A stretch of DNA of 64,000 nt from Escherichia coli (GTDB lineage Bacteria; Pseudomonadota; Gammaproteobacteria; Enterobacterales; Enterobacteriaceae): the NCBI RefSeq assembly GCF_050320075.1, contig NZ_CP190018.1. One strand, 5' to 3'. This document shows positions 10,757 through 15,432 of the stretch, piece by piece. Below the pieces are notes generated by a model. It was not told where the DNA came from. It did no database searches and saw only the letters and a program-made list of their open reading frames with translations. How positions within the stretch are numbered: position 1 is the stretch's first letter; the number at the start of each line of letters is the position of its first letter. The position numbers were made by a program, and so were the translations under genes.

Positions 10757-13432
10757 TTACTTCAACATATTACGAATGACATAATGCAAAATGCCGTCGT
10801 TCTGGTAGTAGGTCAACTCCGTCGCGGTGTCGATACGACAACGGCAGGGTACGACTTCCTGGCTACCATCCGCGCGCGTAAACGTCACCGGAACCGTCGC
10901 GCCGGGTTGTAGACTTTGCAGATCGACAATATCAATCTTCTCTTCCCCGATTAGCCCTAACGTTTTACGCGTCACGCCTTGCGGAAATTCTAGCGGCAGG
11001 ATGCCCATGCCAATTAAATTCGAACGGTGAATTCGTTCAAACGATTCGGCAATCACCACACGAATTCCAAGCAGACGAGGACCTTTTGCCGCCCAGTCAC
11101 GGCTGGAGCCTGATCCATACTCTTTCCCGGCAATCACCGCCAGCGGCGTTTGCTCCTGCTTATAGCGCATCGCGGCATCATAAATAGAGATGACCTCGCT
11201 GTCAGGTAAATGCCGCGTCATCCCCCCTTCAACGCCAGGCACCATTTCATTACGGATGCGAATATTGGCGAAGGTGCCGCGCATCATCACTTCATGGTTA
11301 CCACGCCGCGAACCGTAGGAGTTAAAGTCTTTTCGCTCAACACCCCGGCCTTGTAGATATCGACCCGCTGGGCTGTCGGGCTTAATACTGCCCGCCGGAG
11401 AGATATGGTCAGTGGTGACTGAATCCCCAAGCATTGCGAGGATCCGCGCACCGTGAATATCTTCCACAGGTGCTGGTGTTGCCTGCATTTCATCAAAGAA
11501 AGGCGATAAGCGAATATAGGTTGAATCCTCCTGCCAACCGTAGGTATCGGATCGTGCGACGTTAATTTCCTTCCACTCTGCTATGCCTTCAAAAACTTCT
11601 GCGTACTCTTTACGGAACATTTCTGTGGAGACTTGTTCTACCGCACGGGCAATTTCTTGTGCCGATGGCCAGATATCTTTCAGATATACCGGATCGCCTT
11701 TGCGATCGTGACCAATAGGCTCAGATGCGAGGTTGATATTCATATTTCCCGCCAGCGCATAGGCAACCACCAGCGGCGGCGAGGCCAGCCAGTTGGTTTT
11801 AACCAGCGGATGGATACGGCCTTCAAAGTTACGGTTGCCGGACAGCACTGCACCGACGGTTAAATCGCCTTTTTTGATTGCCGTTTCGATAGGATCGGGC
11901 AGCGGCCCAGAGTTACCAATACAGGTGGTACAACCATATCCCACAAGGTTAAACCCCAGTTCGTCGAGATACGGTGTCAATTTCGCTTTTGCCAGATAGT
12001 CAGAAACAACTTTCGAGCCTGGTGCCAGCGACGCTTTGACCCACGGTTGCCGCTTGAGGCCCAGAGTTACGGCTTTTTTCGCCAGCAAGCCTGCGGCCAT
12101 CAGCACACTTGGGTTAGAGGTATTGGTGCACGACGTTATCGCTGCAATGACCACAGCGCCATCAGGTAACTGATACTGATGTCCGTTCATAACATAATCG
12201 ACCGGCTGGCGATCTTTATGCGTGGCATTTACTTCCAGTTCGTTACTGGCGGCAAATGCTTTTGGTACATCGGGCAGTGCAACGCGATCCTGTGGGCGTT
12301 TTGGCCCTGCCAGGCTCGCTTCAACGTCATTCATATCCAGTTCTAACGTACTGGTAAAAATCGGTTCATCGCCCGGGTTACGCCACATGCCCTGCGCTTT
12401 GGCGTATTTTTCGACCAACTCGACCTGATCTTCACTGCGCCCGCTTAAACGCATGTAATCGAGGGTGACAGCATCGATTGGGAAGAAGCCACAGGTGGCA
12501 CCATATTCTGGCGACATATTGGCAATGGTGGCGCGATCCGCCAACGGTAGTGAATCCAGACCATCACCATAAAATTCGACGAATTTCCCCACCACGCCAT
12601 GTTTGCGCAGCATTTGGGTAACGGTGAGAACCAGGTCTGTGGCGGTAATACCTTCACGTAATTTTCCGGTGAGTTTAAAGCCCACTACGTCCGGGATAAG
12701 CATGGAAACCGGCTGACCTAACATTGCGGCTTCTGCTTCGATCCCCCCCACGCCCCACCCCAGCACGCCAAGGCCGTTGATCATGGTGGTGTGCGAGTCA
12801 GTACCAACGAGTGTATCCGGATAAGCAATCCATTCACCGTCCTGCAATTCGCTCCACACTGCTTTGCCGAGATATTCGAGGTTAACCTGATGGCAAATGC
12901 CTGTGCCTGGCGGCACGACGCTAAAACGACTGAACGCCTGCTTTCCCCATTTCAGGAACACATAACGTTCGTGGTTGCGCTCCATTTCCAGGCGCACGTT
13001 TTCTTCAAATGCCTCATCATCACCAAAACGATCGACGGTCACCGAGTGGTCAATGACCAGGTCGACCGGTGAGAGCGGGTTAACCTTTGCAGTATCGCCG
13101 CCGAGGCGTTTAACCGCTTCGCGCATTGCCGCCAGATCAACAACGGCAGGTACGCCGGTAAAGTCCTGCATCAGCACCCTTGCCGGGCGGTAGGCAATTT
13201 CACGGTCAGCATGGGCATTTTTCAGCCATCCCGCCAGCGCGTAGATATCCTCTTCGGTAACCGAGTTACCATCCTGCCAGCGCAGCAGGTTTTCGAGCAA
13301 AACTTTGAGTGACTTAGGCAAACGGGTGATATCGCCCAGTGATTTGGCAGCAAGCGGCAGGCTGTAGTAGTGGTAAGTTTTATCTTTGGCCTGCAACGTG
13401 TCCTTACTGGCTTCTCGTAGGGTTGACGACAT
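10757..13432 (-). CDS. acnA: Aconitate hydratase A, 891 aa
   Basis: 891 aa ORF, aconitase family (N-terminus [29 protein letters not shown]). Confidence 0.95.
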
Positions 13433-13804
13433 AGCTCCTCCTTAATGACAGGGTTGCGAAGCCCTGATTCTCTTCAGGGTGAATATTAAAGATAACACAA
13501 ACATCGCGTAACGATTTGATAACAACCCAAATTGATAAAAGAGGAGAAAGCTTGTGGCAAAACAAATGAAAACCCCGCCGCAGCGGGGTCAGGGATCAGT
13601 GAGTAATGATCCAGAGGAGTTCGGCCCAGAAGAGCATCGACAGAGAAAATGCGCCCATCCAGGACCAATATTTCATATTTGTGTTGATCATAGGCTACAC
13701 CTTTAACGGTTATTACTTTGTGTTGAGATAACTCAACCTGTTATTGCTGCGGTGTATTAAAAGCCCTGTAATTCATTAAAAATGGGTAATAAGAATGATG
13801 ATAA

Positions 13805-13972
13805 TTATTGTTTCGGCTGATCATCTTCAGCAAACAGTTCTATAAAGGCTTGCTGCTGCGATGTTAGTTGCCAGTCGTCTGGAATAACGACGGAACATTC
13901 CCGTTTCGTTTCTGTTTCATTGTCACTATGCTGGCATAATGGTGACGACTCCAGTTGCTCCTGACCGACCAT
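13805..13972 (-). CDS. yciX: Small protein YciX, 55 aa
   Basis: ORF 13805..13993 trimmed to MVGQEQLESSPLCQHSDNETETKRECSVVIPDDWQ..., 55 aa; lies between cysB and acnA as in the K-12 map. Confidence 0.6.
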   Translation of the reverse strand: MVGQEQLESSPLCQHSDNETETKRECSVVIPDDWQLTSQQQAFIELFAEDDQPKQ

Positions 13973-13974
13973 AG

Positions 13975-14103
13975 TTATCCCCACACTTTCCAAATCAGCA
14001 GTGCGACAACCACCCAGAAAAGTGCAGAACCAAGAAAAACCGCCAGCCAGGCTTTACGTTTTAATTCAGGATCGCGGCGGGGTTCCTGATTTCCAGAAGG
14101 CAT
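13975..14103 (-). CDS. ymiA: Small membrane protein YmiA, 42 aa
   Basis: Hand translation of the minus strand gives MPSGNQEPRRDPELKRKAWLAVFLGSALFWVVVALLIWKVWG with one predicted TM helix; its stop lies 2 nt before the yciX start. Confidence 0.6.
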   Translation of the reverse strand: MPSGNQEPRRDPELKRKAWLAVFLGSALFWVVVALLIWKVWG

Positions 14104-14433
14104 TGCTAACCTCATATAATCGCCATCACTTATCAGAAAGACGTTGAACGATTGGTGTAATTAATCATACGATGAGACAAATCCTAAAGAAACTTTAGTC
14201 AAAAATCCAGCGAATTTACGAATCGTCTCCAGTGAATAATTCAATCTTTTGACCTGAAATAGATATTTGAAAACTGGAGTTTGCGAGGCGGGTAATTAGA
14301 CACTACTTTACAGGTAATTTACCCTATAAATATGAGGGATAAAAATATTGTGCACGGTATACAAATAAGCAACAAAAGAGAATATATTCCGGCACCTTCG
14401 CTACATAAAAGGTGCCGAAAATAACGCAAGAAA

Positions 14434-15432
<999 letters not shown>

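Follow-up and report, generated by a model that had tools for sequence, protein, structure and literature searches.

What is encoded by the 31-codon open reading frame (ORF) that lies between yciX and acnA in Escherichia coli and ends immediately before a GC-rich hairpin with a T-run? An earlier note, based on the sequence of a 64,000-nucleotide stretch of E. coli DNA (referred to here as the window), described this mini-ORF as unannotated and suggested that it might specify a leader peptide or a small membrane protein, or that its position next to the hairpin might be coincidental. Comparison of ORFs with annotation identified the region as cysB-ymiA-yciX-ymiC-acnA of E. coli, with all of these genes on the minus strand. 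A 1051-nt piece around the mini-ORF was 100% identical to several complete E. coli genomes, and the region was found in 5421 of 5426 complete genomes. An ORF scan and the sequence itself confirmed that the features described on the minus strand (ymiA, yciX, the mini-ORF, the hairpin, and acnA) are all present, in the order cysB (stop at 14434), ymiA, yciX, mini-ORF, hairpin, and acnA (ATG at 13432). The features considered here are as follows.

13975..14115, minus strand: ymiA, first gene of the operon, encoding a small single-pass membrane protein (ORF, PGAP and K-12 RefSeq annotation)
13805..13972, minus strand: yciX, 55 amino acids, uncharacterised (ATG 2 nt past the ymiA TAA)
13722..13764, minus strand: 5' part of the Rfam STnc180 match, containing a motif and a small hairpin (alignment, per-locus hairpin search)
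13698..13703, minus strand: Shine-Dalgarno-like AAGGTG, 6 nt 5' of the ymiC ATG
13596..13691, minus strand: ymiC (b4741), encoding a 31-amino acid small inner-membrane protein, ATG at 13691 (RefSeq, family models, published papers)
13559..13590, minus strand: intrinsic-terminator-like hairpin (stem 13590..13571) with a U-rich tail (terminator scan, folding, cross-locus comparison)
13433..13545, minus strand: conserved block just 5' of acnA, read as the proximal promoter and 5' untranslated region (UTR) (alignment)

This region corresponds to an operon of three small-protein genes, ymiA-yciX-ymiC, that in Enterobacteriaceae has been inserted between cysB and acnA. The ymiA ORF encodes 46 amino acids from its first ATG (PGAP and K-12 RefSeq) or 42 amino acids from ATG 14103. 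The 42-residue version given in the earlier note corresponds to this second ATG, which is the universally conserved start, with the Met of MPSG alone being invariant across 14 loci. YmiA matched NCBIfam NF000536 (96.8 bits) and Pfam PF22868 (125.9 bits). Relatives of yciX were detected by tblastn in eight other Enterobacteriaceae loci, and its start indeed lies 2 nt after the ymiA stop. The ribosome binding site proposed for the mini-ORF was likewise found in place, as AAGGTG at 13703..13698, with GGTGT occupying the equivalent Shine-Dalgarno position in 6 of 11 ymiC loci, and the coordinates given for the hairpin and T-run were right to within 2 nt.

The mini-ORF is ymiC. RefSeq names its product "small membrane protein YmiC" (WP_001310756.1), and the K-12 gene is b4741, at 1335572-1335667. 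The translation in the window, MINTNMKYWSWMGAFSLSMLFWAELLWIITH (31 amino acids), is identical to K-12 YmiC and is encoded at the same place between yciX and acnA, so that the two are the same gene; the difference between K-12 and the window lies outside the protein, in the U-tract of the hairpin, which is cleaner in the window (UUUUCAUUUGUUUU versus UUGUCAUUUGCUUU in K-12). The protein scored 66.3 bits against NCBIfam NF041484 (cut-off of 42) and 87.5 bits against Pfam PF23694 (cut-off of 27), the latter over its full length (residues 1-31). Its position between yciX and acnA, 3' of cysB-ymiA, is that of the YmiC family and is retained in 10 other Enterobacteriaceae loci. The mini-ORF can therefore not be called unannotated, given that RefSeq annotates ymiC in E. 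coli genomes and that the protein has family models of its own. The feature is real but already known, named, and experimentally validated, and in this respect our main finding adds nothing new.

The gene was named ymiC after detection of the SPA-tagged protein by VanOrsdel et al. in 2018 (PMC6001520), who noted an earlier sign of it in tetracycline-inhibited ribosome profiling. A bioRxiv preprint of 2024-2025 (PMC11429745) described a YmiC start site in retapamulin profiling (Ribo-RET) that is induced in low Mg2+, and placed ymiC at the end of a ymiA-yciX-ymiC operon that responds to low Mg2+ by PhoQP-dependent induction. [quoted passage not shown] Neither deletion nor overexpression of ymiC gave rise to a detected phenotype (PMC11429745). 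The suggestion of a small membrane protein was thus correct, having been established by SPA tagging, Ribo-RET, and membrane localisation (PMC6001520, PMC11429745).

To compare the locus across genera, we collected acnA upstream regions regardless of the presence of ymiC, with the AcnA NH2-terminus as the seed. This search yielded at least 80 loci, and the cross-genus sample is small because only approximately 19 of the 80 acnA loci among the matches listed were from Enterobacterales. Additional loci encoding distant YmiC relatives were obtained from an exhaustive HMMER search (10 matches). The comparison set comprised 11 ymiC loci: that of E. coli and 10 from outside E. coli, namely Enterobacter cloacae, three other Enterobacter isolates, Pseudocitrobacter, Superficieibacter, and four other assemblies. 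Salmonella was represented indirectly, through the Rfam consensus only.

The ymiC ORF was intact in all 10 loci from outside E. coli, each with the order cysB-ymiA-yciX-ymiC-acnA. The distance from an invariant Lys to the stop was exactly 25 codons in 11 of 11 loci, preceded by an Asn-rich, variable NH2-terminus of six to eight residues. Eight residues (K7, Y8, W9, S10, W11, S18, L20, and W22) were invariant. The mean pairwise pN/pS for the 25-codon core in the 11 loci was 0.365 (pS of 0.69), compared with 0.83 and 1.33 in the shifted frames, and mean pairwise differences at codon positions 1, 2, and 3 were 0.335, 0.195, and 0.506, respectively (third > first > second). The YmiC peptide is therefore under protein-level purifying selection. 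The earlier note had proposed that conservation of the reading frame be examined across Enterobacteriaceae and that start sites be mapped with retapamulin. These checks have largely been made, since the YmiC start signal was already published (PMC11429745) and conservation was reproduced here, with an intact frame and a pN/pS of approximately 0.37 in the 11 loci.

On the Kyte-Doolittle scale, the highest mean over 19 residues of YmiC was 1.54, a marginal value for a membrane-spanning helix. In our preferred account, ymiC is translated from ATG 13691 to yield a 31-residue, single-pass inner-membrane protein with an Asn-rich NH2-terminus, an invariant KYWSW motif at the putative membrane interface, and a helix bearing conserved Ser, LFW, and Glu/Gln residues. 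YmiC would then work as a protein and not as a regulatory leader, and we infer that its biochemical role is modulation of a membrane partner by way of the conserved polar face of the helix.

The hairpin that follows ymiC begins 6 nt past the TGA. A terminator scan defined it as GACCCCGC-TGCG-GCGGGGTT at 13590..13571, followed by TTCATTTGTTTT to approximately 13559. The 8-bp stem with six GC pairs, the 4-nt loop, and the tail TTCATTTGTT match the terminator consensus. The folding energy was approximately -16.5 kcal/mol (z = -2.5), with 7 of 200 shuffled sequences folding equally well. Each of the 11 ymiC loci contained a GC-rich hairpin with a T-run, as did E. albertii. The stems differ in sequence but remain paired; at one stem position, for example, C-G in E. 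coli corresponds to T.G in four loci and to T-A in E. albertii and one further locus (L082). Stems were compared locus by locus. In 10 of the 11 loci, the minimum-energy fold included the hairpin. The distance from the ymiC stop to the stem was 5-16 nt in nine of the 11 loci, 37 nt in L008, and 63 nt in L010, and that from the end of the stem to the acnA ATG was nearly constant, at 135-152 nt.

The hairpin lies where the small-protein operon gives way to the control region of acnA, given that a conserved acnA block is located directly downstream. This position is as expected of an operon terminator or insulator, and the hairpin is probably the 3' end of the ymiA-yciX-ymiC transcript. It would act as the Rho-independent terminator of the operon, and would stop PhoQP-driven transcription from reaching the separately regulated proximal promoter of acnA. 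Among the K-12 Term-seq 3' ends examined (supplement to PMC7815308), no plus-strand 3' end is given between 1333823 and 1335835, and thus none at the hairpin; the operon, whose induction occurs mainly in low Mg2+ (PMC11429745), may have been poorly expressed in the media used, and the U-tract of K-12 is weakened. Together, we consider it highly likely that ymiC is the protein-acting last gene of ymiA-yciX-ymiC and that the hairpin is the operon terminator that insulates the acnA promoter.

The block of approximately 110 nt directly 3' of the hairpin and 5' of acnA was almost invariant across genera in the alignment, and we interpret it as the 5' UTR and proximal promoter of acnA. Within it lies TGTTTGTGTTATCTTTA at 13503..13487, a sequence described as a PhoP site in the promoter of Salmonella acnA (PMC10294627). 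The genomes without ymiC bear on the role of this block. In E. albertii, ymiA, yciX, and ymiC are all gone, and both the acnA block and a hairpin in the same place are retained. The genes ymiA-yciX occur without ymiC in two Citrobacter species and in Mangrovibacter, and no terminator was detectable in these three loci; the acnA block is almost intact in both Citrobacter loci, with Mangrovibacter keeping the promoter-proximal part only. In Rahnella, Acerihabitans, and Serratia, cysB directly adjoins acnA. Given that the block persists in genomes lacking ymiC, control of acnA from it is independent of ymiC.

A scan for consensus promoters detected no minus-strand promoter in the region. A scan for PhoP boxes with three mismatches allowed gave 206 matches in the window compared with 147 expected, and those upstream of ymiA were weak only. 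Cunningham et al. reportedly placed, in 1997, a sigma-S-dependent acnA promoter, P1, with its start 407 bp upstream of acnA, as well as a promoter P2 at -50. Such a position of P1 would fall inside yciX, and certain conditions would then give a long acnA leader with ymiC inside it.

Three alleles of the hairpin were found within E. coli. The window allele has the hairpin followed by UUUUCAUUUGUUUU, the K-12 allele has the hairpin followed by UUGUCAUUUGCUUU, an interrupted U-tract, and the third allele lacks 14 bp that include the 3' arm of the stem, with no alternative structure formed (-4.7 kcal/mol). Among 40 matches taken at even intervals from the 5421, eight had the deletion and approximately 24 a K-12-like sequence. 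A query spanning the deletion junction was covered to at least 80% in 1484 genomes, a few of these being two-piece matches to hairpin-bearing alleles. From the sample and the junction query, we estimate that the 14-bp deletion is carried by about 20-27% of E. coli genomes. Because the 3' arm is absent, termination at this site must be dispensable in the deletion strains. The YmiC protein has a single accession in window-type and deletion-type strains and is identical in K-12. The protein thus remains constant while the terminator decays within E. coli, the opposite of what is expected of a leader peptide that serves that terminator.

The alleles also allow another reading of the hairpin, as an insulator that leaks and can be adjusted in evolution, and not as a fixed end of the operon, with read-through in deletion strains, and partly in K-12, placing acnA under the control of Mg2+ and PhoQP. 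We regard this reading as unlikely. If it were true, the operon would extend to acnA as a fourth gene in strains that carry the 14-bp deletion, and partly so in K-12-type strains; where the hairpin is intact, read-through could be tuned by a ribosome that terminates 6 nt 5' of it. The natural series of three terminator alleles provides a ready test of transcriptional coupling between the operon and acnA.

The leader-peptide reading holds that ymiC is mainly a leader peptide or upstream ORF (uORF), with translation up to the hairpin setting the balance between termination and read-through into acnA. A ribosome terminating at the ymiC stop would cover the 5' arm of the hairpin where the two are 5-16 nt apart, and a distal acnA promoter inside yciX, reported in the older literature, is compatible with such an arrangement. 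The ymiC-acnA pair was moreover listed among candidate uORF-regulated genes by Adams et al. 2021. The 3' end to which that study refers is, according to its supplement (PMC7815308), K-12 position 1335835, corresponding to 13428 of the window in acnA codon 2 and not to the ymiC hairpin, and it is scored there as not Rho-dependent. Selection acts at the protein level along the whole peptide and not at a few codons only; the Trp residues at positions 9, 11, 22, and 27 do not form tandem regulatory codons, and eight columns are invariant. The stop-to-hairpin spacing varies, being wider in L008 and L010. Excluding the terminator from the fold raised the energy by 7.7-15.6 kcal/mol at every locus, and no antiterminator of comparable stability is therefore predicted. 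The hairpin has been deleted from roughly one-fifth to one-quarter of E. coli genomes with no change in YmiC, E. albertii has a hairpin without the ORF, and acnA with all (Citrobacter) or part (Mangrovibacter) of its block occurs where ymiC is absent. A conserved peptide, variable spacing, the lack of a predicted antiterminator, and loss of the hairpin in many E. coli genomes leave the leader suggested by the earlier note poorly supported, and we consider such a role improbable. Pure coincidence, a chance ORF beside a chance hairpin, has in its favour that 36 ORFs of at least 20 amino acids are present within 1.8 kb around the mini-ORF, so that an ORF of 31 codons could by itself have arisen by chance, and that some shuffled sequences fold as well as the hairpin region. 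The mini-ORF is raised above chance by its conservation in frame, length, and residues across genera, by the family-model matches, and by the published experiments that detected the protein. Given an intact ORF with a fixed 25-codon core and coding-type substitutions in 11 loci, we exclude coincidence and assign it virtually no weight.

A non-coding reading must also be weighed, in which the segment of approximately 200 nt is the Hfq-associated small RNA (sRNA) STnc180 and the ORF is incidental to it. Rfam RF02079 (STnc180) matched 13562..13764 over its full length with 201.6 bits, compared with a gathering score of 50, and the family was found in nine other ymiC loci. STnc180 was first recovered by Hfq co-immunoprecipitation in Salmonella, and a motif and small hairpin in its 5' part are conserved. 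Against this reading, an uninterrupted YmiC ORF of 31 codons can be read from the Rfam consensus itself, and that ORF is under protein-level selection. The discovery paper detected no small RNA for a group of six candidates including STnc180, but only signals of 500-2000 nt, which it called processed mRNA species, and translation of YmiC and the protein itself have been published (PMC6001520, PMC11429745). We therefore hold an sRNA with an incidental ORF to be very improbable; the segment could nonetheless be a dual-function RNA, both coding and regulatory. STnc180 and ymiC are the same locus and the same sequence, with STnc180 typed as a non-coding sRNA and yet encoding YmiC, and, in the literature searched, the two papers with a mention of STnc180 (from 2008 and 2017) were different from those with a mention of ymiC. 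That an Rfam "sRNA" family is ymiC mRNA is a matter of database hygiene that should be of use to those working on small proteins. Our preferred reading remains that of ymiC as a protein-coding gene followed by the operon terminator.

The spacer between yciX and ymiC contains the motif TACAC-N-CAGCAAT at 13756..13743 (minus strand), with a hairpin, GTTGAG-TTAT-CTCAAC, located 3' of it at 13737..13722 (minus strand). All 12 loci had a hairpin of 5-9 bp located 13-22 nt after the motif, with a stem whose sequence differed from locus to locus. Both motif and hairpin are also present in Mangrovibacter, a locus without ymiC. These hairpins were identified by a search of each sequence against shuffles; RNAalifold predicted no pairs from the MAFFT alignment of the spacer, in which the hairpins are misaligned.

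We also considered a Trp-sensing leader based on the WSW motif. This candidate was rejected, as the Trp codons are not in tandem, the residues concerned are invariant residues of the interface, and acnA is not known to be linked to Trp.

Alignment of the YmiC and YmiA families with hhalign gave a probability of 93.9% and a score of 31.5, compared with 9.6 +/- 2.3 (maximum of 19) for 200 column shuffles. Both are small single-pass membrane proteins, and the invariant K, W, F, S, and LFW residues of the two families are in register, as K-x3-W-x3-F-x2-S-x-LFW. YmiA is distinguished by a longer polar NH2-terminus (MPSG...RDP) and a WKxWG tail, whereas YmiC has the Asn-rich NH2-terminus of six to eight residues and a conserved Glu/Gln in the helix. 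The two belong to separate Pfam and NCBIfam families (NF000536 and PF22868 in the case of YmiA), and YmiA scored only 7.7 bits on the YmiC model. Judged from these sequences, YmiC is probably a paralogue of YmiA, and the in-register match of ymiA and ymiC suggests a tandem duplication. Given that YmiA and YmiC look like duplicates, they are worth studying jointly, as the paralogue may hide the effect of deleting one of them alone.

In its outline, the locus resembles attenuators of the trpL type and the mdtU-mdtJI arrangement, in that a short ORF ends before a terminator-like hairpin with a metabolic gene downstream. It differs from both in that ymiC has no tandem codons and no competing antiterminator, and in that conservation extends over the whole peptide, the distance between stop and hairpin varies, and many strains can do without the hairpin. 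[quoted passage not shown] These have known protein partners and phenotypes, whereas YmiC has neither (PMC11429745), and they show no sequence relationship to YmiC. YmiC nevertheless shares with MgrB, MgtS, and PmrR a length of <50 amino acids, a single-pass topology in the inner membrane, and induction by PhoQP and low Mg2+ (PMC11429745).

The small membrane proteins encoded by ymiC (13596-13691, minus strand) and ymiA (13975-14103, minus strand) have in common, in register, the pattern K-x3-W-x3-F-x2-S-x-LFW. The profile-profile score for YmiC versus YmiA was 31.5, and the maximum reached by 200 column shuffles was 19. The two proteins are probably paralogues that arose by tandem duplication, despite their separate family entries. 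Five further features of this region, in window coordinates, were as follows.

14101-14115, minus strand: start region of ymiA, with alternative Met codons
13722-13760, minus strand: motif TACAC-N-CAGCAAT and small hairpin between yciX and ymiC, conserved across loci
13557-13590, minus strand: terminator polymorphism, three E. coli alleles including those of strains 25DN (L091) and K-12 (L093)
13483-13545, minus strand: acnA upstream block, TTTATCAATTTGGGTTGTTATCAAA...TGTTTGTGTTATCTTTAAT, near-invariant in Enterobacteriaceae
13428-13482, minus strand: region of acnA 5' UTR segments CCCTG (13479-13475), CAGGG (13466-13462) and CCCTG (13454-13450)

The true start of ymiA is uncertain. Across 14 loci, the Met of MPSG (14103, 42 aa) was the sole invariant candidate. 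The Met at 14115 (46 aa), which is the choice of both PGAP and the K-12 RefSeq annotation, is replaced by Thr, Lys or Ile in six loci, and a Met farther 5' (MISDxDC...) is found in 10 of the 14, with CTG at that codon in E. coli. Published TetRP data are at odds with both ymiA annotations (PMC4909307).

The small hairpin lies 13-22 nt 3' of the TACAC-N-CAGCAAT motif in all 12 loci compared at the equivalent position (the window, L004, L006-L010, L076, L082, L084, L086 and L088), with a stem sequence that differs in each genus. One of these loci, that of Mangrovibacter (L076), lacks ymiC. Candidate roles for motif and hairpin are RNA processing, binding of a protein or Hfq, and stabilisation of the mRNA by the stem.

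Both ymiC and the terminator-like hairpin directly 3' of it are absent from Mangrovibacter and from two Citrobacter species (L002, L005), all of which possess ymiA-yciX. E. albertii NBRC 107761 (L003, 2230-2500) has lost ymiA-yciX-ymiC, whereas the hairpin is still there, as is the promoter block of acnA. Within E. coli, the hairpin is followed by a clean U-tract in the window allele and by an interrupted one in K-12; in the third allele, a 14-bp deletion removes the hairpin 3' arm. Among complete genomes, approximately a fifth to a quarter carry this deletion. All three alleles occur with one and the same YmiC protein sequence. Two individual variants of ymiC were also observed. In E. coli EC931 (L092, 2510-3300), the gene is interrupted after codon 26 by an IS1A element, yet the annotation retains it as a variant YmiC of 32 aa whose C-terminus is altered. 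In the Logan assembly of SRR25451646 (L090, 1501-1692), the deletion allele is accompanied by a change of the stop codon from TGA to TGC, giving a 63-aa product by read-through towards the acnA promoter.

Conservation of the acnA upstream block far exceeds that of ymiC. The block contains two TTATCAA repeats, and the sequence of a PhoP site reported in Salmonella falls within it. All three 5' UTR segments are conserved and could form two mutually exclusive pairings immediately 5' of the acnA Shine-Dalgarno sequence. A K-12 Term-seq 3' end flagged as 'uORF' corresponds to window position 13428, in acnA codon 2.

The Rfam family STnc180 (RF02079, type 'Gene; sRNA') spans ymiC together with its hairpin (13562-13764, minus strand); no paper was found that names both STnc180 and ymiC. 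When translated, the STnc180 consensus yields an intact 31-aa YmiC, MINTNMKYWSWIGAFSVSILFWAELIWIVFH*.
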